From: Escherichia coli
GTDB taxonomy: Bacteria; Pseudomonadota; Gammaproteobacteria; Enterobacterales; Enterobacteriaceae
Length of the DNA: 64,000 nt
Direction: 5' to 3' (one strand)
Assembly: GCF_001677475.2 (NCBI RefSeq)
Contig: NZ_CP015229.1
In this document: positions 7,753 to 22,004 of the stretch, one piece after another
Position numbering within the stretch: position 1 is the first letter of the stretch
Layout: every line of letters starts with the position of its first letter
The notes under the pieces: generated by a model
What the model saw: only the letters and a program-made list of their open reading frames with translations
Databases searched by the model: none
What the model was told of the DNA's origin: nothing
Translations under genes and position numbers: made by a program

Positions 7753-8118
7753 ATGATGTCCACCACGTTATTTAAAGATTTCACCTTCGAAGCCGCTCAC
7801 CGCTTACCACACGTCCCGGAAGGACATAAATGTGGTCGCCTGCACGGGCATTCCTTTATGGTGCGACTGGAAATTACCGGGGAAGTCGATCCGCATACGG
7901 GCTGGATTATCGATTTCGCTGAACTGAAAGCGGCGTTTAAGCCAACTTATGAGCGCCTCGATCACCATTATCTCAATGATATTCCAGGCCTGGAAAACCC
8001 GACCAGCGAGGTTTTAGCAAAATGGATTTGGGATCAGGTTAAACCCGTTGTGCCGCTGTTAAGTGCGGTGATGGTAAAAGAAACCTGCACCGCAGGTTGT
8101 ATCTATCGCGGCGAATGA
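7753..8118 (+). CDS. queD: 6-carboxy-5,6,7,8-tetrahydropterin synthase (queuosine biosynthesis)
   Basis: 121-aa frame [33 protein letters not shown]...; ORF-track entry 7669..8118 is an N-terminal over-extension. Confidence 0.9.
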
Positions 8119-8195
8119 TAAGAGTGTGTCGGCGGTCAATTTCCCTTAAGTAACGCTATGTTAGGGTATTGTGTTCTGGATATCTGGGGCATGAC

Positions 8196-9467
8196 ATGGA
8201 AGACGACTGCGACATTATTATTATTGGTGCCGGTATTGCAGGCACCGCTTGCGCGTTACGCTGCGCGCGAGCGGGTTTATCCGTTTTGTTACTGGAACGC
8301 GCTGAAATCCCCGGCAGCAAAAATCTTTCCGGCGGGCGTTTATATACCCAGGCGCTCGCGGAACTCCTCCCACAATTTCATCTGACCGCGCCTCTTGAAC
8401 GACGCATCACTCACGAAAGCCTTTCCCTGTTAACGCCGGATGGCGCAACGACGTTTTCCAGCTTACAGCCCGGCGGTGAATCCTGGAGTGTATTACGTGC
8501 ACGTTTCGATCCGTGGCTGGTTGCCGAAGCCGAAAAAGAAGGTGTCGAATGCATCCCTGGTGCGACGGTGGATGCGCTGTATGAAGAAAACGGCAGGGTG
8601 TGTGGTGTCATTTGTGGTGACGATATTCTCCGCGCCCGTTATGTGGTGCTGGCAGAAGGTGCCAACAGCGTCCTGGCTGAACGTCACGGGTTAGTGACTC
8701 GTCCTGCTGGCGAAGCGATGGCGTTGGGGATCAAAGAAGTGCTGTCGCTGGAAACATCCGCTATTGAAGAACGTTTTCATCTGGAGAATAACGAAGGCGC
8801 AGCGTTGCTGTTCAGCGGCGGGATCTGTGATGACTTACCCGGCGGCGCATTTCTTTATACTAATCAACAAACGCTCTCGTTAGGGATTGTTTGCCCGCTC
8901 TCTTCCCTTACGCAAAGTCGTGTTCCGGCAAGCGAGCTGCTGGCTCGCTTTAAAACGCATCCGGCAGTGCGCCCGCTTATCAAAAACACGGAATCACTGG
9001 AGTATGGTGCGCATCTGGTGCCAGAAGGTGGCTTGCACAGTATGCCGGTGCAATACGCCGGTAACGGCTGGCTGCTGCTGGGCGATGCGTTGCGCAGTTG
9101 CGTCAATACCGGAATTTCCGTGCGCGGCATGGATATGGCGCTAACTGGCGCGCAGGCGGCGGCACAAACGCTGATAAGCGCCTGCCAGCATCGCGAGCCG
9201 CAAAATCTGTTTGCGCTTTATCATTACAACGTAGAGCGCAGCCTGCTGTGGGATGTTCTACAGCGCTATCAGCATGTTCCGGCGCTTTTGCAACGCCCTG
9301 GCTGGTATCGGGCGTGGCCTGCGCTAATGCAGGATATTTCCCGTGATTTATGGGATCAGGGTGATAAACCTGTTCCGCCGCTGCGCCAGTTGCTCTGGCG
9401 TCATTTACGTCGTCATGGCCTGTGGCATCTGGCGGGCGATGTTGTCAGGAGTATTCGATGTCTGTAG
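8196..9467 (+). CDS. ygcN: FixC-like electron-transfer-flavoprotein:quinone oxidoreductase (FAD-dependent)
   Basis: 423-aa frame from ATG 8196 (MEDDCDIIIIGAGIAGTACAL... with a GxGxxG FAD fold), GGGG Shine-Dalgarno 6-8 nt upstream; ORF-track start 8169 is a TTG extension. Confidence 0.88.
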   Translation: MEDDCDIIIIGAGIAGTACALRCARAGLSVLLLERAEIPGSKNLSGGRLYTQALAELLPQFHLTAPLERRITHESLSLLTPDGATTFSSLQPGGESWSVLRARFDPWLVAEAEKEGVECIPGATVDALYEENGRVCGVICGDDILRARYVVLAEGANSVLAERHGLVTRPAGEAMALGIKEVLSLETSAIEERFHLENNEGAALLFSGGICDDLPGGAFLYTNQQTLSLGIVCPLSSLTQSRVPASELLARFKTHPAVRPLIKNTESLEYGAHLVPEGGLHSMPVQYAGNGWLLLGDALRSCVNTGISVRGMDMALTGAQAAAQTLISACQHREPQNLFALYHYNVERSLLWDVLQRYQHVPALLQRPGWYRAWPALMQDISRDLWDQGDKPVPPLRQLLWRHLRRHGLWHLAGDVVRSIRCL

Positions 9468-9718
9468 CCCGTAATCTCTGGCGCGCTGCTGATGCGCCGC
9501 ACATTGTTCCGGCTGACTCCGTTGAGCGTCAGACGGTACAACGGTTGATTAACGCTTGTCCGGCTGGTCTTTTTTCGCTCACACCGGAAGGTGACTTACG
9601 CGTTGATTATCGCGGCTGCCTGGAGTGTGGCACCTGCCGTTTGCTGTGCGACGAATCAACACTACAACAGTGGCGCTATCCGCCTTCCGGATTCGGCATC
9701 ACCTACCGTTTTGGATAA
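9458..9718 (+). CDS. ygcO: FixX-like ferredoxin-like protein
   Basis: 86-aa frame MSVARNLWRA...CLECGTCRLLCDES; AGGAG 6 nt upstream of the ATG; overlaps the ygcN 3' end by 10 nt. Confidence 0.85.
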   Translation: MSVARNLWRAADAPHIVPADSVERQTVQRLINACPAGLFSLTPEGDLRVDYRGCLECGTCRLLCDESTLQQWRYPPSGFGITYRFG

Positions 9719-9734
9719 ATAATAAGGATAATTT

Positions 9735-10310
9735 ATGCCCCTCTTACACCTGCTCCGCCAGAATCCGGTGATTGCTGCCGTTAAAGATAATGCCAGCCTG
9801 CAACTGGCAATCGACTCTGAATGCCAGTTTATTTCCGTGTTGTACGGCAATATCTGCACCATTAGTCAAATCGTTAAAAAGATTAAAAATGCCGGAAAAT
9901 ATGCTTTTATTCATGTTGATTTGCTGGAAGGCGCGTCAAATAAAGAAGTGGTGATTCAGTTTTTGAAACTGGTGACTGAGGCGGATGGAATTATCAGCAC
10001 CAAAGCATCGATGCTAAAAGCGGCAAAAGCGGAAGGTTTTTTCTGTATTCATCGTCTGTTTATTGTTGATTCAATTTCGTTTCACAACATTGATAAGCAA
10101 GTTGCGCAATCGAATCCGGATTGTATTGAGATCCTGCCAGGCTGTATGCCCAAAGTGCTGGGCTGGGTGACGGAGAAAATCCGCCAACCGCTGATTGCCG
10201 GCGGGCTGGTGTGCGATGAAGAAGATGCGCGTAATGCGATTAACGCGGGTGTTGTGGCGCTTTCCACCACGAATACCGGGGTCTGGACGTTAGCGAAAAA
10301 ATTGCTTTGA
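9735..10310 (+). CDS. ygcP: GlpP-family putative transcription antiterminator
   Basis: 191-aa ORF; size and sequence fit the GlpP (glycerol-3-phosphate-responsive antiterminator) family as annotated for E. coli YgcP. Confidence 0.85.
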   Translation: MPLLHLLRQNPVIAAVKDNASLQLAIDSECQFISVLYGNICTISQIVKKIKNAGKYAFIHVDLLEGASNKEVVIQFLKLVTEADGIISTKASMLKAAKAEGFFCIHRLFIVDSISFHNIDKQVAQSNPDCIEILPGCMPKVLGWVTEKIRQPLIAGGLVCDEEDARNAINAGVVALSTTNTGVWTLAKKLL

Positions 10311-10344
10311 CGGGATACTCGTAACGAGTTGAATTTGTGTGATT

Positions 10345-10460
10345 TGTAGGCTGCACGCCACATCCGACATTCAGCGCCTGATACGACGCTTGACGCTTGA
10401 CGCGTCTTATCAGGCTTGCAAGTCCCCAGCCCAGAACCGTAGGCAGGATCATCCGGCAGC
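10345..10460. repeat. BIME / REP cluster between convergent ygcP and ygcQ
   Basis: REP-type palindromes, including GCCTGATACGACGCTTGACGCTTGACGCGTCTTATCAGGC (10376-10415) and flanking GC-rich REP-like arms. Confidence 0.65.
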
Positions 10461-10463
10461 ACG

Positions 10464-11324
10464 TTATTGGCAATCTGCGTGAATGGTTGTCACCAGTGCC
10501 TCCAGTACCGCTTTCCAGTCATCTACCACGCCAACATCTGCCTGTGAAAATACCGCTGCGCTGGCGTCATGATTAATCGCCACCACAAACTTGCTATTGC
10601 GTACGCCCGCCATTAACGCTGCTGCGCCGGAAGCGCCAACAACAATGCACACCTCAGGCGCCAGCAGATGTCCGGAAATACCAATCACTTTTTCAGCATC
10701 AACGCCACCGTTCATCACTCGCGCCCGACTGTAGCCCACTTCGGCTCCCAGCTTTTCTGCCAGCATAGCAATTTCCTGGTTATCTGCCTCTCCGCCCTGC
10801 CCCACCACCAGCACCTGTCTGGCCTCAGCTAATGGGTCGCGGGTAACATTTTTCAGGTTTTCTATGCTAACCAGCCAGTCGGGAAGCGCACCTGGGACAA
10901 TGTTCAGTTGCTGCATACCAGAGGGCAACGTGGCGTTTTTATCTGCTCCCGCCTGACGTGCCAGCGAAAGGCATAGCGGGCGTTTTTCTGTTTGCAGCGT
11001 CGCCGTTAGCGCATTTCCCCAGTGGGATTTGCGCACGCTTACGGTTGGAATATCTAACGAAGTCACCTGGCAGATGCTTGCACCATGTAAACGCCAGGCC
11101 AGCCGGGTCGACAGTTCATCGCCAAATGTTCCCGGCGGAAAGAGAACAACGTCCGCAGGCGTTCGCTGCCACTGTTCCACCAGCGCATCCAGCACCTGTT
11201 CCGCCACTACGGGCTGTGGTTCAATCTGCCAGTGCGCCAGCGTACAACCGCTGAAATCCTGCGCCGCCAGCCAGCTCGCTATTGCGGCATTCTCCTGATT
11301 TATTGTCACAATTGCGATATTCAT
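10464..11324 (-). CDS. ygcQ: electron transfer flavoprotein alpha-subunit-like (FixB-like)
   Basis: 286-aa frame from MNIAIVTINQ...; its ATG overlaps the ygcR stop (ATGA), suggesting translational coupling. Confidence 0.85.
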   Translation of the reverse strand: MNIAIVTINQENAAIASWLAAQDFSGCTLAHWQIEPQPVVAEQVLDALVEQWQRTPADVVLFPPGTFGDELSTRLAWRLHGASICQVTSLDIPTVSVRKSHWGNALTATLQTEKRPLCLSLARQAGADKNATLPSGMQQLNIVPGALPDWLVSIENLKNVTRDPLAEARQVLVVGQGGEADNQEIAMLAEKLGAEVGYSRARVMNGGVDAEKVIGISGHLLAPEVCIVVGASGAAALMAGVRNSKFVVAINHDASAAVFSQADVGVVDDWKAVLEALVTTIHADCQ

Positions 11325-12100
11325 GGCTGCATCCTTTGGCGTAAATAGTCCTGCCATAGCTTTTGCGCTTTTTCTGCTACCGTTTGCCCATCAATCAGCG
11401 TCGCTCCGCGTCGTTGCTCTGCTCTTGCCAGTTGCAGACACTGCATCGCTGGCATTTCGGCAGCAACAGTTTTACGGATAATTTCTGCTTTCCCCGCCGC
11501 CATTCGCTGACGCATTCCCGGTACTGGCAAGGCCACTTCACCGCACTGACGCACGGCAATCACCGCAGGCAAGCGAACCCGGCAACAGCGCAGCCCGTTT
11601 TCAGTACGCTGTTCGAGGGTGATAAACGGCGCGTCGAGAGTAAAACGCTCCACCTGGGTGAAGCAGGGCCAGCCCAGCATTTCCGCCAGCAAAAATGGCG
11701 TTTGCCCATTCTGCCCTTCGCTGCTTTGGCAGCCGGTAATTATCAGATCCAGCGGATTCTGACGCTGCCATTCGGCAATATGGCGAGCGACAAATTCCGG
11801 CGCAAAGCGCAGATCTGCCGCCGTCTCCAGCAATACAGCTTCCTCAAACCCAAGCGCCATGAGATAGCGCAGCCAGTGCAACGCCCGTTCATTCCCCATG
11901 CTCAACGCGGTTAAAGACATCGACGTACCGTTTTTTCTCTGCGCCAACAGCAGCGCGGCGGCAGCCTGTTCATCAGCACCGAGTAAACTTCGCAGAAACG
12001 AAACATCCGGTCCGCTATTACCCTGAGCCGCCGCCTGCCACTCTTTTTCCGCCAGCATTCCGGCATCCGGTTCGGCTTTAAACGCTAACAGAATGTTCAT
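11321..12100 (-). CDS. ygcR: electron transfer flavoprotein beta-subunit-like (FixA-like)
   Basis: 259-aa ORF with ETF-beta-like sequence. Confidence 0.88.
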   Translation of the reverse strand: MNILLAFKAEPDAGMLAEKEWQAAAQGNSGPDVSFLRSLLGADEQAAAALLLAQRKNGTSMSLTALSMGNERALHWLRYLMALGFEEAVLLETAADLRFAPEFVARHIAEWQRQNPLDLIITGCQSSEGQNGQTPFLLAEMLGWPCFTQVERFTLDAPFITLEQRTENGLRCCRVRLPAVIAVRQCGEVALPVPGMRQRMAAGKAEIIRKTVAAEMPAMQCLQLARAEQRRGATLIDGQTVAEKAQKLWQDYLRQRMQP

Positions 12101-13415
12101 TCGTACCTCCTACATTTCCCGCCGCCACCAGCGGGAGTGCTTTGGTTTCTGGTGCCCATAGCCAGGTCACGACAAAACCAACCAACAACACTGCCGCCAG
12201 GAGCAATAAGGTGACTTGCATTCCCCACTGCGCCAGCACCCACGGCAGCAGGCCAGTACTTACCGCCGCGCCCAACCGACTCATGGCGGTGGCAAAACCG
12301 ACGCCCAGCGAGCGAATGTCAGTAGGAAAACTTTCCGCAGGCAAAATGCCCACCAGATTACTGACTGCCGAAATGGTGGTGCTGAAGAGAACAAAAAGCA
12401 GCAGCGTTAATGAACTGCCGGAAGGCAAACAGGCCATCACGACCAGCGTTGCCGCCAGCAGCAAAAAACTTCCCAGCAAAAATTTGCGATGTGCCAGCAG
12501 GTGCGTCAGAACTAATCCCAGCAGCGCACCCACAATTAACAACGCATTAAGCATCAGGCTAGCGGTCAACGCATCTTCCAGACCAATAGTCTGGGCGATA
12601 GTTGGCAGCCAGGTATAAATCACAAACCATGGGATTACGAGGCAGACAAAGAAGACACTGTTAAACGCCGTGCGCCGCCAGTAGCGCGAAGAGAACAAGG
12701 TTTTGATGTGTTTATGGGTCGCCGTTGCCACTTCATCGCCCAGTAAAACATGGGGACCAAAATAGCGATGCACGATAGCGTGAGCTTCAGCAAAACGCCC
12801 CTGTCGCAGTAGCCAGCGTGGCGATTCTGGCGTTCCCCAGCGTAATAACGTAATCAATAACGCGGGCAGAGCTGCCGATGCCAGCAGCCAGCGCCAGGCC
12901 TCCGGGCTTTCGCTAATAAAGTGATGTCCGGCAATACTTGCCAGCACATAGCCTACGGTCCACACCACGCTGAACGCGCCCAGCAAAATACCGCGGTGGC
13001 GGCGCGGGGAAAATTCAGCCAGCAAGGTGTGACCGACTGAGTAATCGCCTCCCAGACCAATGCCAATCAAAATGCGCAGTCCAATAAGATGCTCTGGCGT
13101 GGTGGCAAAAAATTGTAAAAACGAAGCAAGCGTAATCAGCAAAAAGCTGAAGGTGAAGATTTTTTGTCGCCCAATATGGTCGGAGATCCAGCCCAGAACC
13201 AGGCTGCCAAGAAACAAACCAAGGAGTGCTGAGCCGCCAATCATTCCCGCCATAAACGGCGTCAGTTGCATGGCGGGCGTAAGCTGAATAATGGCGTAAC
13301 CAATGACGCCGAGGACATAACCGTCGGTCAGGTGTGCGCCGAAAGTGAGCGCAGCAATGCGGCAGTGAAAACGGTTAAGTGGTAAATCATCCATTCGCAC
13401 CGGTGAAGTGTTCAT
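12078..13415 (-). CDS. ygcS: MFS transporter (sugar-porter-like)
   Basis: 445-aa frame from MNTSPVRMDDLPL...; multiple hydrophobic helices; AAGGGG Shine-Dalgarno 6 nt upstream; 3' end overlaps ygcR by 23 nt. Confidence 0.85.
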   Translation of the reverse strand: MNTSPVRMDDLPLNRFHCRIAALTFGAHLTDGYVLGVIGYAIIQLTPAMQLTPFMAGMIGGSALLGLFLGSLVLGWISDHIGRQKIFTFSFLLITLASFLQFFATTPEHLIGLRILIGIGLGGDYSVGHTLLAEFSPRRHRGILLGAFSVVWTVGYVLASIAGHHFISESPEAWRWLLASAALPALLITLLRWGTPESPRWLLRQGRFAEAHAIVHRYFGPHVLLGDEVATATHKHIKTLFSSRYWRRTAFNSVFFVCLVIPWFVIYTWLPTIAQTIGLEDALTASLMLNALLIVGALLGLVLTHLLAHRKFLLGSFLLLAATLVVMACLPSGSSLTLLLFVLFSTTISAVSNLVGILPAESFPTDIRSLGVGFATAMSRLGAAVSTGLLPWVLAQWGMQVTLLLLAAVLLVGFVVTWLWAPETKALPLVAAGNVGGTNEHSVSV

Positions 13416-13508
13416 CTTTACCCCTTCATTGTCCGGTAATAAGAACGGCTTCTCGCCTGAGAAGCCGAAAAGGCAACGCTCCGTCATCGCGGAACGCTGC
13501 CTGACACA

Positions 13509-14963
13509 TTATTTTTCAATCGGATAGATAGTACCCGTATTCATAATGCCGTTAGGATCGAACTGCTTTTTCAGCCCTTCCAGCAACGCCCACGCGCTGC
13601 CGTGTTCCAGTTTGCTCCAGTGAACGCGATGTTTACCGATACCGTGGTGGTGCACCATCGAACCACCGAGGCGAATGGTTTCTTCGCAGATGATTTTGTT
13701 GAGCGGATTGTGGTACTTGTCGATTTCCTCTTCCGGCTTACAGTCAACGACGTTGTAGTCGTAGACGAAGTACATGTTGGTGCCGTTCTGGTAGCTATGA
13801 GAGGAGTGACCGCCCAGCATGGTGATGTCGTCGGCGTGCGGGAACTCGGTACGAATACGGTTAATAACGCTTTCGTAGATTTCGTGAATGCAGCTCCAGC
13901 AGCCGGACACTTCGGTGGTAAAGCCCATGTTGCCGGTTTTGAGGATCTGCACACGTTCAGCGGCCACTTTATCCGGCCCCCAGTTCAGGTGATTAAACCA
14001 GGTTTCGATCAGCTTGCTGTCCACTCGCTGGCATTGCGGGTAACGTGCCACGATTTCCGCAATCCCTTCGCCTGTCGCCTTCGCAATGCGAGGGTTACCT
14101 TCAGCCATAAAGATCAGCACACATTTACCATCGGCAAAATGGGTGAAGTGTTGGGTGCCATCTTCAGCGTCATACAAACGAGCGATCGACGGACGATACC
14201 CTTCCACCATGATTTCACGCAGGATGTTGAAGCCGGTTTTCATGTCTTCCAGGATATAGCCGTAGAAGAGGTTGTTTTCCGGGGTGAACTTAAAGATTTT
14301 CACAGTTACTTCAGTGATATAGCACAATGCACCTTCGTTGCCGATGATGATGTGACGAATGTCCGGGCCTGCCGCGCGGCGTGGTACGTTTTTAATGCGT
14401 GTTACGGTGCCATCAGCCAATACTGCTTCCAGACCAACGACCATATCTTCGATTGCGCCGTAGAGTGTGGAGAACTGCCCGATACTGCGGGTTGCTACCA
14501 GGCCGCCCATCTGCGCCAGCGGCTTTGACTGCGGAGAATGCCCCGTGGTGTAACCTTTTTCACGCAACGCGTTTTCCAGCACTTCCAGCGGAACACCGCA
14601 TTGCGCCGTGGCCTGCATATTCTCAATATCAATATTAATGATTTGATTCATGGCAGAGCCGTCGAGCACCACCGAGTTTTCCACAACGGTTTCCAGCCCA
14701 CCTTCGGTGGCGGAAGCACCGGTACGTGGCACACCGTTAATTTTGTGCGCATTCATAAAATTCAGCACACGGGATACTTGTTCTGTGGAACCGAGTTTTA
14801 CGACCGCTGCCGGAATCGGCAAAGTATAAATGCCATGAATATCCGGAAATTTACGAAAACGGTCAATACTGTTCTTCTTTAATACTGTTTCATCGGTAAT
14901 TATGCGATCTGCACCAACAATTTCCTTTAGCTGGTCGACAATCGCTGCGCGAGATAAAGACAT
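13509..14963 (-). CDS. ygcU: FAD-linked oxidase / dehydrogenase (alkyl-DHAP-synthase-like family)
   Basis: 484-aa ORF MSLSRAAIVDQLKEIVGADRI...; FAD-binding PCMH-type fold. Confidence 0.88.
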   Translation of the reverse strand: MSLSRAAIVDQLKEIVGADRIITDETVLKKNSIDRFRKFPDIHGIYTLPIPAAVVKLGSTEQVSRVLNFMNAHKINGVPRTGASATEGGLETVVENSVVLDGSAMNQIINIDIENMQATAQCGVPLEVLENALREKGYTTGHSPQSKPLAQMGGLVATRSIGQFSTLYGAIEDMVVGLEAVLADGTVTRIKNVPRRAAGPDIRHIIIGNEGALCYITEVTVKIFKFTPENNLFYGYILEDMKTGFNILREIMVEGYRPSIARLYDAEDGTQHFTHFADGKCVLIFMAEGNPRIAKATGEGIAEIVARYPQCQRVDSKLIETWFNHLNWGPDKVAAERVQILKTGNMGFTTEVSGCWSCIHEIYESVINRIRTEFPHADDITMLGGHSSHSYQNGTNMYFVYDYNVVDCKPEEEIDKYHNPLNKIICEETIRLGGSMVHHHGIGKHRVHWSKLEHGSAWALLEGLKKQFDPNGIMNTGTIYPIEK

Positions 14964-15032
14964 AGTAATTCCTTCCTGATAATAAAAATGGAATAATCAT
15001 TAATAAGAGAAAACAGAAACCACCGTTATGGA

Positions 15033-15818
15033 TTAGCGCACTAAATAACCACCATCGACCACTAATAAATGCCCGTTAACATAATTTGAAGCCGGACTTG
15101 CGAGGAATACGGCTGCGCCCATTAAATCCTGAGTATCGCCCCAACGGTTTGCTGGAATATGATCAAGAACGCGCTGATTGGTTTCTGGATTACTGCGTGT
15201 CGCCAGCGTAATATCTGTTGCATAATAGCCAGGGGCAATACCATTTACCTGAATATTATATTGACCTAGTTCATCACAATAAGCTTTGGTGAATCCGGCA
15301 AGAGCATGTTTAGTGGCAGAATATGCAGGTGACCATTGTCCACCTAAGTAAGAGAATAATGAACAGATATTAATGATTTTACCGCTTTTCTGCGGGATCA
15401 TAATTTTTGCAGCTTCATAGCTTAACTCGAATGCGGCGGTCAGGTTCACATCAATCATCGGGTCCCAGTCGGCACGACCGAAGTCCAGCACCTTATTCAG
15501 CTTACAAATACCGGCATTGTTAATCAGAATATCGACGGTACCGAAACGTTCGCAACAGGCGGCGATTATCTTCTGCGGCGCGCCTTCTGCGGTGATATCC
15601 ACCTGCATGAAGTCCACCTCAACACCCTGTTTTTCAATCATTTCCTTTGTTTCGCCGTTATCTTTAACGAAGCTTGGAATAAAGATATTTGCGCCTGCTT
15701 TGGCCAGCGCCATGGCAAATGCCTGGCCTAAACCGCTATTCCCGCCGGTAACAATTGCGGTTTTACCTTTCAGGGAGAAAAAATCCATTGAGAACGCATT
15801 GAGAGATTCGATTGACAT
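15033..15818 (-). CDS. ygcW: short-chain dehydrogenase/reductase (SDR) family oxidoreductase
   Basis: 261-aa frame MSIESLNAFSMDFFSLKGKTAIVTGGNSGLGQA (TGxxxGxG NAD(P) motif); GGAG 7 nt upstream of ATG 15816-15818. ORF-track extension to 15893 reads through the leader terminator and is rejected. Confidence 0.88.
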   Translation of the reverse strand: MSIESLNAFSMDFFSLKGKTAIVTGGNSGLGQAFAMALAKAGANIFIPSFVKDNGETKEMIEKQGVEVDFMQVDITAEGAPQKIIAACCERFGTVDILINNAGICKLNKVLDFGRADWDPMIDVNLTAAFELSYEAAKIMIPQKSGKIINICSLFSYLGGQWSPAYSATKHALAGFTKAYCDELGQYNIQVNGIAPGYYATDITLATRSNPETNQRVLDHIPANRWGDTQDLMGAAVFLASPASNYVNGHLLVVDGGYLVR

Positions 15819-15841
15819 AGTTAGCTCCAATTTCCGTAAGG

Positions 15842-15890
15842 CAAAAAAAAAGAAAGGTAACTTCCCCCGCGAGAGGGAAGTTACCTTTCT
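15842..15890 (-). terminator. Intrinsic (Rho-independent) terminator in the 5' leader of ygcW; candidate antitermination target
   Basis: Minus-strand RNA: 15-bp perfect inverted repeat (15852-15866 / 15875-15889, 8-nt spacer) followed by nine U (complement of the A-run 15843-15851), ending 24 nt upstream of the ygcW start codon. Confidence 0.7.
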
Positions 15891-16064
15891 CATTATCTCT
15901 GGTAACTGGAGATAATTTTTATCATAAGGGCATAATCGCTAATGTGATCGTAATCACAGTGTGATATTCGAATTGTCAAATAATTTTAAAAAGCAGAAGC
16001 GTGATTACTCTCACACAACACCACTGCTTTCCATGTTATTTCTTATTGCAATTACTAGAGACCT

Positions 16065-16112
16065 GAGAAAAGTAATCCACCTGAAAGGGCGGCTTACTTT
16101 TCTCTTTTTTTT
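16065..16112 (+). terminator. Intrinsic terminator in the 5' leader of yqcE; candidate antitermination target
   Basis: 11-bp perfect inverted repeat GAGAAAAGTAA (16065-16075) / TTACTTTTCTC (16094-16104) followed by eight T (16105-16112), ending 25 nt upstream of the yqcE ATG; sequence-related to the ygcW leader terminator. Confidence 0.7.
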
Positions 16113-16136
16113 GTCTATTACAAATGGGAATACGAT

Positions 16137-17414
16137 ATGCAACACAACTCATATCGCCGTTGGATAACCCTCGCGATAATTAGTTTTAGCGGCGGCGTTA
16201 GTTTCGACCTGGCTTATTTACGTTATATTTATCAAATTCCCATGGCGAAATTTATGGGATTCAGCAATACCGAGATAGGTTTAATAATGAGTACCTTTGG
16301 TATTGCGGCTATTATTCTTTATGCCCCCAGCGGCGTTATTGCCGATAAATTTTCACACCGCAAAATGATTACTTCCGCGATGATCATTACCGGATTACTG
16401 GGTCTGTTAATGGCAACATATCCACCGCTGTGGGTAATGCTCTGTATTCAGGTCGCCTTTGCGATAACGACGATTTTAATGCTGTGGTCGGTGTCGATTA
16501 AAGCCGCATCGTTGCTGGGCGATCATAGCGAGCAAGGGAAAATTATGGGCTGGATGGAAGGGCTGCGCGGCGTCGGTGTAATGTCGCTGGCGGTGTTTAC
16601 CATGTGGGTCTTTTCTCGCTTTGCACCGGATGACAGCGCCAGCCTGAAAACGGTCATTATTATCTATAGTGTGGTTTACATTCTGCTGGGCATTTTGTGT
16701 TGGTTTTTTGTTAGCGATAACAACAACCTGCGCAATACCAATAACGAAGAAAAACAGTCATTCCAGCTTAGCGACATCCTGGCCGTTTTGCGCATCAGCA
16801 CCACCTGGTATTGCAGCATGGTGATTTTTGGTGTCTTCACCATCTACGCCATTCTGAGTTACTCCACCAACTATCTGACCGAAATGTACGGCATGTCGCT
16901 GGTGGCGGCGAGCTACATGGGGATTGTGATCAACAAAATATTCCGCGCACTGTGCGGCCCACTTGGTGGCATTATCACCACCTACAGCAAAGTGAAATCC
17001 CCTACCCGCGTGATCCAAATCCTTTCCGTACTCGGCTTGCTGGCGTTAACTGCCCTGCTCGTCACGAACTCTAACCCGCAATCGGTCGCGATGGGGATTG
17101 GCCTGATTTTACTGCTGGGATTCACCTGTTACGCCTCACGCGGGCTGTACTGGGCCTGCCCTGGCGAAGCGAGAACACCGTCTTACATTATGGGCACCAC
17201 GGTAGGTATTTGTTCGGTGATTGGATTCCTGCCGGATGTCTTCGTTTACCCGATTATCGGCTACTGGCAAGACACCCTGCCCGCTGCAGAAGCCTACCGC
17301 AATATGTGGCTGATGGGCATGGCGGCGCTTGCCATGGTGATCGTCTTTACCTTTTTGCTGTTCCAAAAAATTCGTACTGCTGATAGCACCCCTGCTATGG
17401 CTAGCAGCAAGTAA
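16137..17414 (+). CDS. yqcE: MFS transporter
   Basis: 425-aa ORF with about 12 hydrophobic segments; GGGA Shine-Dalgarno upstream. Confidence 0.88.
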   Translation: MQHNSYRRWITLAIISFSGGVSFDLAYLRYIYQIPMAKFMGFSNTEIGLIMSTFGIAAIILYAPSGVIADKFSHRKMITSAMIITGLLGLLMATYPPLWVMLCIQVAFAITTILMLWSVSIKAASLLGDHSEQGKIMGWMEGLRGVGVMSLAVFTMWVFSRFAPDDSASLKTVIIIYSVVYILLGILCWFFVSDNNNLRNTNNEEKQSFQLSDILAVLRISTTWYCSMVIFGVFTIYAILSYSTNYLTEMYGMSLVAASYMGIVINKIFRALCGPLGGIITTYSKVKSPTRVIQILSVLGLLALTALLVTNSNPQSVAMGIGLILLLGFTCYASRGLYWACPGEARTPSYIMGTTVGICSVIGFLPDVFVYPIIGYWQDTLPAAEAYRNMWLMGMAALAMVIVFTFLLFQKIRTADSTPAMASSK

Positions 17415-17440
17415 GTCCAGAAAATTACAGGAGAAAAATC

Positions 17441-18919
17441 ATGTCGAAAAAATACATCATAGGGATTGATGGCGGAAGTCAGAGCACAAAAGTGGTGATG
17501 TATGATCTGGAAGGTAATGTGGTTTGCGAAGGCAAAGGCTTATTGCAGCCGATGCACACGCCAGATGCCGATACCGCAGAACATCCTGACGACGATTTAT
17601 GGGCATCATTATGTTTTGCCGGTCACGATTTGATGAGTCAGTTTGCCGGGAATAAAGAAGATATTGTCGGTATTGGTCTGGGATCCATCCGTTGCTGCCG
17701 TGCGTTATTGAAAGCCGATGGCACGCCAGCTGCGCCGTTGATTAGCTGGCAGGATGCACGCGTTACACGCCCTTACGAACATACGAATCCTGACGTGGCA
17801 TATGTCACCTCTTTTTCAGGTTATCTGACGCATCGCTTAACCGGCGAGTTTAAAGACAATATCGCCAACTATTTTGGTCAGTGGCCGGTGGATTATAAGA
17901 CCTGGGCATGGAGCGAAGATGCCGCGGTAATGGAAAAGTTTAATATCCCCCGCCAGATGCTTTTTGACGTGCAAATGCCGGGCACCGTTCTTGGGCATAT
18001 CACACCTCAAGCCGCGCTGGCGACGCATTTCCCGGCAGGACTGCCGGTTGTTTGTACCACCAGTGATAAACCGGTAGAAGCTCTGGGAGCTGGGTTACTG
18101 GATGATGAAACGGCGGTGATTTCTCTTGGCACCTACATCGCGCTGATGATGAACGGTAAAGCACTGCCGAAAGATCCAGTAGCGTACTGGCCGATTATGT
18201 CTTCTATTCCGCAAACATTGCTGTATGAAGGTTACGGTATCCGCAAAGGCATGTGGACAGTAAGCTGGCTGCGCGACATGTTAGGCGAGTCGTTAATTCA
18301 GGATGCCAAAGCACAGGATCTTTCACCGGAAGATTTGCTCAACAAAAAAGCTTCTTATGTGCCGCCTGGCTGTAATGGTCTGATGACGGTGCTGGACTGG
18401 CTGACCAATCCGTGGGAACCGTACAAACGCGGGATTATGATCGGCTTTGATTCCAGCATGGATTACGCATGGATATATCGTTCGATACTGGAAAGCGTGG
18501 CGCTGACGCTGAAGAACAATTACGACAATATGTGTAATGAAATGAATCACTTTGCAAAGCATGTGATCATTACTGGCGGCGGTTCGAACAGCGATCTGTT
18601 TATGCAGATTTTTGCCGACGTGTTCAACCTTCCGGCACGCCGTAACGCCATTAATGGTTGTGCAAGCCTGGGGGCAGCGATTAATACGGCGGTAGGTCTG
18701 GGGCTATACCCGGATTACGCAACGGCTGTCGACAAAATGGTTCGCGTGAAAGATATCTTTATGCCTGTTGAGAGCAACGCCAAACGCTACGACGCGATGA
18801 ATAAAGGCATTTTCAAAGACCTAACCAAACACACTGATGTGATCCTGAAAAAATCGTATGAAGTGATGCATGGTGAGCTGGGAAATGCGGATTCTATCCA
18901 GAGCTGGTCGAATGCGTGA
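17441..18919 (+). CDS. ygcE: FGGY-family carbohydrate kinase
   Basis: 492-aa ORF MSKKYIIGIDGGSQSTKVVMYD... (FGGY N-terminal motif). Confidence 0.9.
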   Translation: MSKKYIIGIDGGSQSTKVVMYDLEGNVVCEGKGLLQPMHTPDADTAEHPDDDLWASLCFAGHDLMSQFAGNKEDIVGIGLGSIRCCRALLKADGTPAAPLISWQDARVTRPYEHTNPDVAYVTSFSGYLTHRLTGEFKDNIANYFGQWPVDYKTWAWSEDAAVMEKFNIPRQMLFDVQMPGTVLGHITPQAALATHFPAGLPVVCTTSDKPVEALGAGLLDDETAVISLGTYIALMMNGKALPKDPVAYWPIMSSIPQTLLYEGYGIRKGMWTVSWLRDMLGESLIQDAKAQDLSPEDLLNKKASYVPPGCNGLMTVLDWLTNPWEPYKRGIMIGFDSSMDYAWIYRSILESVALTLKNNYDNMCNEMNHFAKHVIITGGGSNSDLFMQIFADVFNLPARRNAINGCASLGAAINTAVGLGLYPDYATAVDKMVRVKDIFMPVESNAKRYDAMNKGIFKDLTKHTDVILKKSYEVMHGELGNADSIQSWSNA

Positions 18920-18965
18920 ATGAGGTAGGCCGGGCGGAAAACTGCCCGGCCTGAACATACCTAAA

Positions 18966-19786
18966 TGGTTATCCCCGCTAACGCGGGGAACTCACTGAAA
19001 ACACCGGCGAGATCGTATTTTTTGCCGGTTTATCCCCGCTCGCGCGGGGAACTCTACCGGAAGGCAGGCACATTAGATCAGGTGATCGGTTTATCCCCGC
19101 TCGCGCGGGGAACTCCAGTGAGCGGAAGAAGAATGACTAACAGAGAGCGGTTTATCCCCGCTCGCGCGGGGAACTCCCCAGCCACAACAGCCACGCGTCG
19201 CGCTGTTCCGGTTTATCCCCGCTCGCGCGGGGAACTCGGAAACCGCCCCGGCGGTGGTTGGCTGTTTGCCGGTTTATCCCCGCTCGCGCGGGGAACTCTT
19301 TGCGCCGGAAATAGGAATCGTATTCGGTCTCGGTTTATCCCCGCTCGCGCGGGGAACTCTTATGCATCTCATCAAGCTTGTCGCCAAACGACGGTTTATC
19401 CCCGCTCGCGCGGGGAACTCTTAAATCGCGCTGGAAAAAAATGGTTTTTGCGCGGTTTATCCCCGCTCGCGCGGGGAACTCACACCCCGTTGCAATAAAT
19501 GGTCTGGGGGCTGCGGTTTATCCCCGCTCGCGCGGGGAACTCCAAACGCTTCTTCGTAGGCAGCACTGTAGGCCCGGTTTATCCCCGCTCGCGCGGGGAA
19601 CTCGGTGAAAAGATGAGTGCATACTGGTTTGTTTTCGGTTTATCCCCGCTCGCGCGGGGAACTCTCTTTTCCCGCTAATCACGACCAGATCCTGTCCGGT
19701 TTATCCCCGCTCGCGCGGGGAACTCGTAAAACCTCCTCGCGCCCACAATCGCAGCGGCGGTTTATCCCCGCTCGCGCGGGGAACTC
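18966..19786 (-). CRISPR. CRISPR array, 14 repeats (29 nt) and 13 spacers (32 nt each); orphan array between ygcE and queE
   Basis: Thirteen identical repeats CGGTTTATCCCCGCTCGCGCGGGGAACTC (plus-strand reading) at 19026, 19087, 19148, 19209, 19270, 19331, 19392, 19453, 19514, 19575, 19636, 19697 and 19758, plus one degenerate terminal repeat TGGTTATCCCCGCTAACGCGGGGAACTC at 18966-18993. AT-rich leader lies at the high-coordinate end, so the array is read on the minus strand. Confidence 0.97.
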
Positions 19787-19990
19787 TCTAAACATAACCT
19801 ATTATTAATTAATGATTTTTTAAGCCAGTCACAATCTACCAACTTTACAGGATCACACAAACAACACATCTATTATGTTAAAGAGCACTTAATCCATTGA
19901 TTGAAAAGGTAAATATTTAAAATAACTCTATACAAACTAAAATCTACCAAACTCCGACGTAATAATTTTCACCCCAGAGAAAAATTAACG
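19787..19990 (-). promoter_or_regulatory. CRISPR leader (AT-rich) containing the presumed array promoter
   Basis: About 200 bp of AT-rich sequence abutting the first perfect repeat, opposite the degenerate repeat; position and composition typical of a type I-E leader. Confidence 0.55.
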
Positions 19991-20125
19991 CCACAGAATT
20001 TGTAGAGAATGACAATGATTAGTCCGGAATGGGCAAAATGGATGAGTTTTCAGAGGCGACAAAAAATATAAATGAGTGGAAGTCTTTACAGGTTCCACCC
20101 ATTTATAACGTATATAAATGTGTAA

Positions 20126-20797
20126 TCAGGCAATATTTAAATATTTATGTGTTTGCATCGACAAACGCCAGTTACGCGCAATGCAAGTTTCAATGCACAA
20201 ACGTGTGGCATCATCCTTTTGGCTAATCGGCTGCAGTGCAATGACTCGCGGTTTATCATCGGTCAGCGTCGCAAGCAATTCATCCAGTGCTTCGATATCA
20301 CGTACGCGTCCAACTGGGTGTTTGATTTCGTTAGCTCGCTCCAGGGCTTGCGACAATACTTCATAACCACCACGCATATTTAGCTTTGGCGACACGGTGA
20401 CCCAGGTATTCGGCGTACAACGCACTTCATGAGTACCGCTGGTTTCTATCTGGCAACTGAAACCGTTCTTTTCGAGCAGGTCAGTTAGTGGCATCAAGTC
20501 ATGAATACAAGGTTCACCACCCGTAATCACCACGTGACGCGCGGTGTATCCCTGACGACCGATGACTGCGAGTAAGTCTTCACTGCTTGCTGCTCCCCAC
20601 TTATCACTCTCTTTCGTTTTACCTAGAATGCTGAAAAGGGAAACTTCCCGATCCTCAAGCTTTTCCCATGTGTGTTTGGTGTCGCACCAGGCACAGCCGA
20701 CCGGGCATCCCTGTAAACGAATAAAAATAGCGGGGACGCCGGTAAAGTAACCCTCACCTTGCAGGGTCTGGAACATCTCGTTAATCGGGTACTGCAT
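20126..20797 (-). CDS. queE: 7-carboxy-7-deazaguanine synthase (radical SAM)
   Basis: 223-aa ORF MQYPINEMFQTLQGEGYFTGVPAIFIRLQGCPVGCAWCDTK (CxxxCxxC-type radical-SAM cluster motif). Confidence 0.93.
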   Translation of the reverse strand: MQYPINEMFQTLQGEGYFTGVPAIFIRLQGCPVGCAWCDTKHTWEKLEDREVSLFSILGKTKESDKWGAASSEDLLAVIGRQGYTARHVVITGGEPCIHDLMPLTDLLEKNGFSCQIETSGTHEVRCTPNTWVTVSPKLNMRGGYEVLSQALERANEIKHPVGRVRDIEALDELLATLTDDKPRVIALQPISQKDDATRLCIETCIARNWRLSMQTHKYLNIA

Positions 20798-20969
20798 AGC
20801 ATTCTCTGTGAAGTGGATAATTGTTAATTATTGCAGATCCTGCCACAACAATCATGTCTTATTAACATTCTGTTACAGGCAGGTTTAAAGAAAAATGAGA
20901 AACAGATCGTTAATAATAAAAGGGAGTAACGTATTATGTCAGAAATAAATAAAGTAAAGGGATTTAATC

Positions 20970-21077
20970 ATGTCAAAAACATTCACCAAAATTATACTTA
21001 TTTTTTCTGTGTTCGTTTTTAATTATAACGAATCTCAAATTACCGATGCCGCCGTCAATTTATTTATCCAGCTTTAA
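20970..21077 (+). CDS. hypothetical small protein (35 aa) with hydrophobic N-terminal segment; speculative
   Basis: ATG 20970 preceded by AAGGGA 8 nt upstream; encodes [35 protein letters not shown]; ends 13 nt before ygcG. An overlapping alternative 28-aa frame starts at 20936 ([28 protein letters not shown]). No homology evidence. Confidence 0.25.
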
Positions 21078-21090
21078 TGGGAAATTTATA

Positions 21091-21945
21091 ATGCGCTATT
21101 TCATACTAATATTCACATTCGTGTGTTCCTTTGTTGCAGCCCAACCAACTATTGTCCCACAATTACAGCAACAAGTTACGGATCTTACGAGTAGCTTAAA
21201 CTCACAAGAAAAGAAAGAACTGACGCGGAAGTTAGAATCTATTTTCAATAATACCCAAGTGCAAATTGCTGTATTAATTGTTCCCACAACCAAAGACGAG
21301 ACAATTGAACAATATGCTACACGGGTTTTTGACAATTGGCGTTTAGGAGATGCCAAACGTAATGATGGGATACTGGTCATTGTTGCCTGGTCGGATCGTA
21401 CTGTCCGCATCCAGGTAGGTTATGGGCTGGAAGAAAAGGTAACCGATGCTCTGGCTGGAGATATCATCCGTAGCAACATGATACCCGCATTTAAACAACA
21501 AAAATTAGCTCAGGGATTAGAGCTAGCTATAAACGCTTTGAATAACCAACTCACTTCACAACACCAATATCCGGCTAATCCTTCAGAAAGTGAATCAGCG
21601 TCTTCCAGTGATCATTATTACTTTGCTATTTTTTGGGTATTTGCAGTGATGTTCTTCCCTTTCTGGTTTTTTCATCAAGGCAGTAGTTTTTGTCGCGCAT
21701 GTAAAAGTGGAGTCTGTATTTCAGCAATCTATCTTTTAGATTTATTCCTGTTCTCCGATAAAACTTTTTCCATTGCTGTATTTTCCTTCTTTTTTACTTT
21801 CACCATATTTATGGTCTTTACCTGTTTATGTGTACTTCAGAAAAAAGCATCTGGTAGAATTTATCATTCAGACAACAGCGGTTCCGGTGGCGGCTCAGAT
21901 AGCGGCGGATTTAGCGGCGGGGGCGGCGCATCTGGCCGCTGGTAA
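21091..21945 (+). CDS. ygcG: TPM-domain protein with signal peptide, C-terminal hydrophobic region and Gly/Ser-rich tail
   Basis: Frame from ATG 21091 ([20 protein letters not shown]..., signal-peptide-like); C-terminus ...[24 protein letters not shown]-track start 21046 lacks an RBS and would bury the signal peptide. Confidence 0.75.
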
Positions 21946-21952
21946 CTCAACC

Positions 21953-21985
21953 ATAAAAAATGCCAGCCCGGAGGCTGGCATTTTT
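21953..21985. terminator. Bidirectional intrinsic terminator between ygcG (+) and eno (-)
   Basis: Hairpin TGCCAGCC-CGGA-GGCTGGCA (21961-21980) flanked by an A-run (21955-21960) and a T-run (21981-21985). Confidence 0.7.
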
Positions 21986-22004
21986 AAATCAGATAAAGTC
22001 AGTC

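Follow-up and report, generated by a model that had tools for sequence, protein, structure and literature searches.

We analyzed a 64,000-nucleotide stretch of Escherichia coli DNA (hereafter the window), with attention to the 318-bp spacer between the divergent genes ygcW and yqcE. The leaders of both genes, which head two uncharacterized operons of sugar type, carry an RNA element that, in our view, is likely to be a protein-dependent antitermination switch of the GlpP type. The genes around the spacer run in the order queD, ygcN, ygcO, ygcP, ygcQ, ygcR, ygcS, ygcU, ygcW, yqcE, ygcE, CRISPR array, queE. The spacer is 100% identical to that of E. coli strain 7/2 and 95-100% identical in 5,046 of 5,426 complete E. 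coli genomes, and the RefSeq annotation places no feature in it. A literature search returned no paper on the function of ygcP, ygcN, ygcO, ygcQ or ygcR; the ‘ygcO’ of PMC13104625 is a misprint for ycgO. The genes and transcription units on which the argument draws are the following.

15818-15033 (-): ygcW, annotated as 261 amino acids, with its ATG at 15818
16137-17414 (+): yqcE, with its ATG at 16137
9735-10310 (+): ygcP, putative RNA-binding antiterminator of the GlpP family (PF04309), from Pfam and the RefSeq name
10464..15818 (-): presumed operon ygcW-ygcU-ygcS-ygcR-ygcQ, its extent presumed from gene order and tight spacing
16137..18919 (+): presumed operon yqcE-ygcE, a unit of the same composition in published listings, its extent also presumed

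Each leader contains a hairpin followed by a run of U just upstream of the start codon. The initial annotation had described both as intrinsic terminators, and its repeats, U-runs and quoted RNA strings were all correct. On the ygcW side (minus strand), positions 15852-15866 and 15875-15889 form a perfect 15-bp inverted repeat, or 19 pairs if G-U is allowed, followed by nine U in the RNA sense (15851 down to 15843) and by 24 nt (15842-15819) to the ATG. On the yqcE side (plus strand), positions 16065-16075 and 16094-16104 form a perfect 11-bp repeat, followed by eight T (16105-16112) and again 24 nt to the ATG. The distance to the start codon given earlier for ygcW is therefore retained, while the 25 nt given for yqcE becomes 24 nt, a difference in counting. 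The predicted folding energies were -31.6 kcal/mol for ygcW and -22.3 kcal/mol for yqcE (z = -6.5 and -4.4), none of 200 shuffled sequences was as stable, and the ygcW hairpin ranked first among the terminator-like sites in 14 kb.

15843..15891 (-): ygcW leader intrinsic terminator, a 19-pair stem at 15891-15850 with U9 at 15851-15843
16065..16112 (+): yqcE leader intrinsic terminator, a stem at 16065-16104 with U8 at 16105-16112

Published Term-seq data (Adams et al. 2021, PMC7815308, supplementary file 3; lysogeny broth (LB), optical density 0.4) place an RNA 3’ end at both hairpins. The ygcW leader end is at K-12 position 2900311(-), which is window position 15856, 38 nt upstream of ygcW, with 40,640 reads; it lies outside a Rho region and has an intrinsic-terminator score of 15.8 (PMC7815308). 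The yqcE leader end is at K-12 position 2900556(+), window position 16101, 36 nt upstream of yqcE, with 1,557 reads and a score of 11.4. Neither end is Rho-dependent, and the ‘regulatory element’ column of the table is empty for both (PMC7815308). An absence of terminated leader transcripts had been named as grounds for abandoning the proposal made in the initial annotation; ends are present at both hairpins, and that of ygcW is abundant. In both operons the intrinsic terminator lies downstream of the promoter and ahead of the start codon and is active in vivo; the mapped ends fall just inside the stems, and we read them as terminated leaders shortened by 3’ exonucleases. They might instead be products of processing or decay of full-length mRNAs, with the hairpins serving as 5’ stabilizers. 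The location of the ends inside the stems and not in the U-run would agree with such processing, and so would an effect of Bacillus subtilis GlpP on glpD mRNA stability, which the title of Glatz et al. 1996 (cited in PMC9604022) states. However, both hairpins are terminators of canonical form, very stable in the stem and ending in U8-U9 runs, the published table gives high terminator scores and no Rho dependence, and the U-run is kept in every orthologue. We consider an origin by processing or decay highly improbable.

Upstream of each U-run, and overlapping the terminator, we found a second fold that had escaped the initial annotation, a 6-7 bp helix closing a 14-15 nt loop with two GAGA boxes. 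The full strings are AGUUACC[AGAGAUAAUGAGAAA]GGUAACU for ygcW and AUUACU[AGAGACCUGAGAAA]AGUAAU for yqcE.

15842..15910 (-): ygcW leader attenuator, whole element, about 67 nt of RNA from the putative start near 15909 to the U-run
15879..15907 (-): predicted ygcW antiterminator hairpin, with 5’ arm AGUUACC at 15907-15901, loop AGAGAUAAUGAGAAA (two GAGA boxes) at 15900-15886 and 3’ arm GGUAACU at 15885-15879
16047..16112 (+): yqcE leader attenuator, whole element, about 64 nt
16051..16076 (+): predicted yqcE antiterminator hairpin, with 5’ arm AUUACU at 16051-16056, loop AGAGACCUGAGAAA at 16057-16070 and 3’ arm AGUAAU at 16071-16076

Nascent RNA that still lacks the terminator 3’ arm has this hairpin as its fold of lowest energy in both leaders. 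Its energy is -6.7 kcal/mol for ygcW and about -1.4 kcal/mol for yqcE, against -32 and -22 kcal/mol for the terminators. The bottom 12-13 pairs of the terminator, adjoining the U-run, are formed by the second GAGA box together with the weak helix’s 3’ strand; on the ygcW side, for example, the terminator 5’ arm holds both the second box and the antiterminator 3’ arm. Because these segments are shared, the two folds are mutually exclusive, and the folding check proposed at the outset does reveal such an antiterminator in both leaders. Since the terminator is by far the stronger of two folds that exclude each other, termination should be the default state.

Two further features of the ygcW leader were considered and set aside. 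An 11-bp inverted repeat at 15892-15916 (ATTATCTCTGG TAA CCAGAGATAAT) would, in RNA, surround the 5’ arm of the antiterminator and occupy the first GAGA box by pairing. We rejected it as an anti-antiterminator, given that it is not conserved even among Escherichia loci and that its 5’ arm lies upstream of the putative start; the repeat is probably fortuitous. The loop also contains an AUG at 15893 (-), within AAUGAGAAA and in frame with ygcW, which produces a mechanically called open reading frame of 286 amino acids at 15033-15893. Attenuation by ribosomes on a leader peptide was rejected, as this AUG has no Shine-Dalgarno sequence and is CUG, AAG, ACG or GAG in the yqcE leader and many orthologues.

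The promoters of the two leaders were predicted from conservation. Every enterobacterial leader has a conserved TGnTA motif 16-18 nt before the 5’ arm, which places the putative starts near 15909(-) and 16049(+), and a CRP or CRP-like site precedes each of them, the two sites being 57 bp apart.

15943..15958: CRP site TGTGATCGTAATCACA, perfect, centered 41.5 bp upstream of the putative ygcW start (about 15909)
15916..15924 (-): putative extended -10 of the ygcW promoter, TGaTAAAAA, from conservation
16000..16015: second CRP-like site CGTGATTACTCTCACA, near-consensus, centered 41.5 bp upstream of the putative yqcE start (about 16049)
16034..16042 (+): putative extended -10 of the yqcE promoter, TGtTATTTC, from conservation

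With the starts so placed, both promoters would fit the class II geometry of CRP-dependent promoters. Binding of CRP to the first site (15943-15958) has been reported by chromatin immunoprecipitation in enterotoxigenic E. coli and in vitro with a dissociation constant of about 1.7 nM, and the site was also predicted by PhyloScan. Published work infers that yqcE-ygcE is activated by Crp, and RNA polymerase holoenzyme binds the ygcW-yqcE spacer in genomic SELEX (systematic evolution of ligands by exponential enrichment). The second, predicted site has equivalents in other genera; the published CRP lists that we consulted give only the first.

The initial annotation had also claimed that the two leaders are related to one another. 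The short motif AGAGANNNTGAGAAA, allowing up to two mismatches, gave 6 matches in the window against 3.8 expected, which is not significant alone, and covariance models were used in its place. Model R2 was built only from leaders of Yersiniaceae, Erwiniaceae, Budviciaceae, Vibrio and Firmicutes, with Enterobacteriaceae left out. Searched against the 64-kb window it returned exactly two sense matches, both at these leaders: 15842-15910(-) with 69.4 bits (E 1e-13) and 16047-16112(+) with 54.2 bits (E 3.5e-10). The scores with model R1 were 78.7 bits for the ygcW leader and 74.4 bits for the yqcE leader. The relationship was thus borne out, both leaders sharing one composite element that the models match. 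BLAST with the ygcW leader found a median of 2 places per E. coli genome, all of them chromosomal and consistent with this locus only, with the limit that diverged copies would escape BLAST. The pattern AGAGN{3,6}GAGAAARGTAAY was searched in metagenomes; among the 80 matches listed, 79 were chance matches without a terminator and 1 was real, on an E. coli-like contig.

A genome scan anchored on the YgcP protein yielded 65 loci, so that the presence of a YgcP homologue at every leader locus follows from the construction of the search. The leader was found in all 57 loci that reach the 5’ region of ygcW, yqcE or ygcU, one of them with only a degenerate remnant, and it usually occurs as two divergent copies. 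In more than 1.2 Mb of retrieved loci, every strong model match was at these leader positions. The 57 loci range over Enterobacterales and Firmicutes. They come from Escherichia, Citrobacter, Klebsiella, Raoultella, Enterobacter, Yokenella, Lelliottia-like strains, Buttiauxella, Serratia, Rahnella, Ewingella, Pantoea, Erwinia, Izhakiella, Budvicia, Limnobaculum and Enterobacillus, and also from five Listeria sensu lato species, Thalassobacillus and a Bacillus. Vibrio hannami (locus L067) and Fodinisporobacter of the Alicyclobacillaceae (locus L068) each carry the cassette, a YgcP homologue and two leaders. Despite rearrangement, a core set travels together: the short-chain dehydrogenase/reductase (SDR) YgcW, the flavin adenine dinucleotide (FAD) oxidase YgcU, the FGGY kinase YgcE, a transporter and a YgcP-type protein. 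In Listeria these genes form a single operon, ygcU-ygcP-yqcE-ygcW-ygcE, behind one leader, GUUGCU[AGAGAAUUGAGAUA]AGCGAC, with its terminator. Conservation in other genomes had been put forward as a check, and the leader is kept, across phyla, wherever the cassette and a YgcP-type protein occur.

The transporter of the cassette varies in two of these hosts. Fodinisporobacter (L068, 12773-16053) has an OpuA-type ATP-binding cassette transporter with an OpuAC binding protein in place of the permeases of the major facilitator superfamily (MFS), and V. hannami (L067, 8715-10286) has a transporter of the betaine/choline/carnitine type (BCCT) after ygcP. These swaps may hint at the nature of the substrate.

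Some spacers have been remodeled. In Limnobaculum eriocheiris (L032, 13850-13990) the ygcW-yqcE spacer is about 130 bp long and holds one palindromic terminator between A9 and T9, with both promoters and both antiterminator halves gone; it apparently arose by deletion between two near-identical terminators, and the cassette is probably silent. The two leader terminators within one genome, including the loop, are identical or nearly so in Limnobaculum allomyrinae (L033, 16257-16651), Budvicia (L041, 16312-16665) and Enterobacillus (L054, 16217-16597), and they differ from genome to genome, which suggests gene conversion between the inverted leader copies.

Covariation of the antiterminator helix was examined in two alignments. 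Alignment A1 holds 61 distinct leaders, and since its candidates had been filtered on pairing, the count was repeated on A2, with 76 leaders gathered by model and no requirement for the upstream helix. Pairing of the helix was 93-94% in A1 and A2, compared to 16-54% with the partner columns slid. Compensatory changes were present at 3 of the 7 helix pairs (G-C/A-U, A-U/G-C and U-A/C-G), and a G-C to A-U compensatory change separates the yqcE type from the ygcW type at alignment columns 5/34-35. The base at the helix end that both folds share covaries three ways, changing together with its antiterminator partner and with its partner in the terminator 3’ arm (U-A-U in 52 leaders, C-G-C in 17); the G-C/A-U change of the outer pair is matched by the antiterminator partner only. 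An alignment of orthologous leaders had been suggested as a check for covariation, and the helix does covary, a support that we regard as real but modest. In the loop, GAG...GAGA(A/U)A is invariant, and the distance between the box starts is 8 nt in 62 of 74 leaders and 7 nt in most others.

This pattern of conservation bears on two other explanations of the leaders. The short terminated RNAs might be the main product, working in trans as small RNAs with a regulatory role, and the effect on the downstream genes might be secondary; the ygcW leader is abundant in the Term-seq data from LB, and it ends in a hairpin and U-run like many small RNAs. However, the mapped 3’ ends lack the U-tail, conservation is concentrated in the alternative helix and the GAGA boxes and not in a free seed region, and the element always stands directly before the cassette genes, all of which make a role in trans very unlikely. 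The leaders might also be riboswitch-like, the GAGA loop and helix binding a small metabolite directly with no protein involved. The overlap of antiterminator and terminator is a riboswitch layout too, and the loop sequence is highly conserved. However, the unpaired stretch under conservation spans just 14-18 nt of one hairpin and is too small to hold a known aptamer fold, and there is no Rfam match above threshold: in Rfam 15, no family came near its gathering score over 8000-22000 and the intergenic region, or over the glp locus of Priestia. Further, the B. subtilis relative requires its protein, since deletion of glpP abolishes induction (PMC9604022). Direct sensing by the RNA seems to us barely credible.

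The protein encoded nearby is a full-length match to Pfam G3P_antiterm (E 7e-63), which upholds the earlier assignment of YgcP to the GlpP family and makes it a PF04309 protein. RefSeq names it ‘putative anti-terminator regulatory protein’, and its relatives in the PDB, 3KTS and 1VKF, are GlpP-like. In B. subtilis, the glpD 5’ untranslated region alone confers GlpP- and glycerol-dependent control on foreign promoters, induction is lost upon deletion of glpP, and the pair is already in use as an expression tool (PMC9604022); the GlpP effect on glpD mRNA stability is known to us from the title by Glatz and coworkers mentioned above.

We compared the ygc leaders with those of glycerol-type systems. 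The B. subtilis glpD leader reads GGUC[CUGAGAUGAGGAGA]GACC, within the longer string ...GGUC[CUGAGAUGAGGAGA]GACCACAGC...GCUGUUGUGGUCUC-U5, and its GACC opens the terminator arm. Like the ygc leaders it has a short helix and two GAGA-type boxes 8 nt apart, and its terminator begins with the second box and the helix 3’ strand. In Priestia megaterium the glpD leader, UUGGUU[GGAGAAUCGGAGA]GACCA, has the same layout as E. coli GUUACC[AGAGAUAAUGAGAAA]GGUAAC, and in these glpD leaders the boxes stand 7-8 nt apart. The P. megaterium glpFK leader (in the glpP-glpF-glpK-glpD locus) carries the boxes GGAGAAUAGGAGA and its own terminator; no closing helix could be made out in it. A leader beside a Faecalibacterium GlpP homologue has the same layout, and one beside the Lachnoclostridium homologue is similar with a shorter closing helix. 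The ygc element therefore resembles a validated GlpP target in layout and box sequence, with a weak covariance-model score. The B. subtilis GlpP system (glpD, glpFK, glpTQ) and the ygc system also share the PF04309 protein, a terminator in the leader and default termination, and a kinase and a dehydrogenase stand in parallel (GlpK and GlpD, YgcE and YgcU).

There are also differences between the two. The box consensus is NGAGA-N2-3-NGAGAAA in ygc and GGAGA-N3-GGAGA in glp. Proteins of the ygc type are 51-65% identical to one another and 26-34% identical to Bacillales GlpP, and they form a separate orthologous group. The ygc cassette is not a glycerol cassette, comprising an SDR, a FAD oxidase with or without electron transfer flavoprotein (ETF), an FGGY kinase and transporters, and in the proteobacterial host there are two divergent leaders under CRP. 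The genes regulated here encode an SDR, a GlcD-like FAD oxidase, ETF, an FGGY kinase and MFS transporters and do not make up a glycerol regulon; this content argues against the label ‘glycerol regulon’, yet not against a GlpP-type mechanism. None of the cassette enzymes reached an equivalog cut-off in NCBIfam, the sub-threshold matches being KduD, GlcD and xylulokinase. Listeria grandensis has a ygc-type antiterminator inside the cassette (L056) and a glycerol-type GlpP beside mutL (L191), 28% identical to each other. As this species holds both paralogues, the two systems must be kept apart, and the low cross-score of the RNA model is consistent with this; L. grandensis would offer a natural case for the study of target discrimination between paralogues.

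The closest parallel within E. coli is the bgl operon. In systems of the BglG/SacY/LicT type, the protein stabilizes a weak hairpin, the ribonucleic antiterminator (RAT), that overlaps the 5’ half of a leader terminator, and in E. coli bgl this occurs in a catabolic operon that needs CRP. The mode of action proposed here is the same. YgcP, unlike BglG and SacY, has no CAT or PRD domain (G3P_antiterm was the only match in a Pfam scan) and has an unrelated fold, no CAT/PRD-type regulator gene was seen among the open reading frames of the cluster, and no component of the phosphotransferase system is encoded there, in contrast to BglG systems. The RNA targets differ as well, a loop with tandem GAGA boxes in ygc and an imperfect palindrome of roughly 30 nt in the RAT. 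TRAP and HutP, which read spaced NAG triplets, resemble the ygc system in that a leader controlling a terminator carries short purine-rich repeats of the (G/U)AG type at regular spacing. TRAP promotes termination and requires 9-11 repeats. HutP reads two sets of UAG repeats and destabilizes the terminator, whereas ygc has two boxes in a hairpin loop and a protein of another family.

We propose the following mechanism. The class II CRP-dependent promoters would fire whenever cAMP is high, each producing a leader some 65 nt long. As the RNA emerges, its first segment would fold into the weak hairpin, with its 6-7 bp helix and 14-15 nt loop displaying two GAGA boxes whose starts are 7-8 nt apart. 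With nothing bound, the stronger terminator would form, drawing on the second box and the weak helix’s 3’ strand for its 5’ arm, and polymerase would stop at the U-run 24 nt before the start codon. Termination in the leader by default would thus keep the operons off even with CRP active. YgcP loaded with its effector would bind the GAGA boxes and helix, hold the 5’ arm of the terminator and block formation of the lower stem, and polymerase would then read through into ygcW-ygcU-ygcS-ygcR-ygcQ and yqcE-ygcE. By analogy with GlpP, YgcP is most likely the factor that binds the leaders. The effector is probably a phosphorylated product of the FGGY kinase YgcE, in parallel to GlpK, glycerol-3-phosphate, GlpP and GlpD. 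YgcU, together with the ETF YgcQR and with YgcNO, would probably be the dehydrogenase for this effector, a suggestion made purely by the same analogy.

Several observations weigh against this mechanism. E. coli has ygcP in another operon, ygcNOP, which lacks a leader of this kind. Identity between YgcP and the glycerol-type GlpP of Bacillales is only 28-34%, and the ygc RNA model scores glycerol-type leaders weakly, at 17-26 bits. The compensatory changes correspond to roughly four independent events among related sequences, and the protein-anchored scan sampled the motif beside PF04309 genes only. The mapped 3’ ends fall 4-5 nt inside the 3’ arm of the stem, before a weak A-U base and the U-run, and could be trimmed or processed ends instead of points of termination.

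These points leave room for the terminators to be real and yet governed by another factor or by none. They might be constitutive dampers or insulators of strong CRP promoters, or might be relieved by another RNA-binding protein or a Csp-type chaperone, YgcP having some other role. The assignment of binding to YgcP is by inference, ygcP is transcribed apart from the leaders in E. coli, and the abundance of terminated RNA in LB speaks for default termination and is silent on what relieves it. On the other side, a conserved and covarying alternative helix with invariant GAG boxes is unexpected in a passive terminator, and the element accompanies a YgcP-type gene in different phyla and through rearrangements of gene order. 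It also has the layout of a proven GlpP target. We consider control by another factor, or by none, unlikely. The covarying helix, the linkage to PF04309 across phyla, the likeness to a GlpP target and the canonical terminators disfavor all four of the alternatives considered, and the GlpP-type, YgcP-dependent switch is the explanation that we prefer.

A wider proposal is offered more tentatively, at somewhat less than even chances. YgcP may represent a second, non-glycerol branch of GlpP that has moved between Firmicutes and Proteobacteria as a unit of regulator, RNA switch and cassette, with the YgcE product as effector. Recognition throughout PF04309 would follow one simple code in RNA, a pair of NGAGA boxes at a spacing of 7-8 nt within a hairpin loop overlapping a terminator, and the context of the boxes would separate the paralogues, as in L. 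grandensis. Rfam 15 has no family for the ygc or glp leaders, and neither there nor in the accessible papers did we find a consensus for the RNA target of PF04309; the cross-phylum alignment provides a candidate recognition motif for this family.

GlpP antitermination in B. subtilis is already known, YgcP is annotated as a ‘putative anti-terminator’, and both 3’ ends are in a published table. What is new is filed within GlpP-type antitermination, as a different regulon in a different host phylum. The initial annotation had supposed this regulation to be undescribed, and we too found no paper on it in the searchable literature, nor any account of the leaders, the alternative structure, the tandem-GAGA motif or ygc regulation; most papers in subscription journals, including the original GlpP papers of the 1990s, lie outside that scope, and a GlpP box consensus could have escaped. 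If the wider proposal is true, E. coli K-12 would have a second, mechanistically distinct protein-RNA antitermination switch beside BglG. Under the mechanism proposed, about ten of its genes of unknown function (ygcN to ygcW, yqcE and ygcE) would gain a model in which CRP gives permission and YgcP gives specificity. It would also account for the silence of the ygc genes in the laboratory despite firing promoters. Deletion of a terminator or overproduction of YgcP should switch the pathway on, which would help to find the substrate. The leader, at about 65 nt, is a possible tool as a compact and portable terminator/antiterminator pair for a Gram-negative host.

A few observations concern the state and surroundings of the cluster. 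The spacer (15819-16136) is missing in about 7% of the complete E. coli genomes (360/5,426), some of which retain a 47-nt fragment, and truncated YgcP proteins are on record for Shigella; the ygc cassette appears to be decaying in some lineages. The CRISPR array between ygcE and queE occupies 19147-19605, with the repeat CGGTTTATCCCCGCTCGCGCGGGGAAC and a period of 61 nt, and a mechanically called open reading frame of 177 amino acids at 18965-19498 that spans it is surely no gene. Between ygcU and ygcS, at 13446-13467 (-), there is a GC-rich 9-bp hairpin, CGGCTTCTC-AGGC-GAGAAGCCG, with a weak T-rich tail, which could be an internal attenuator or an element for processing or stabilization inside the operon.

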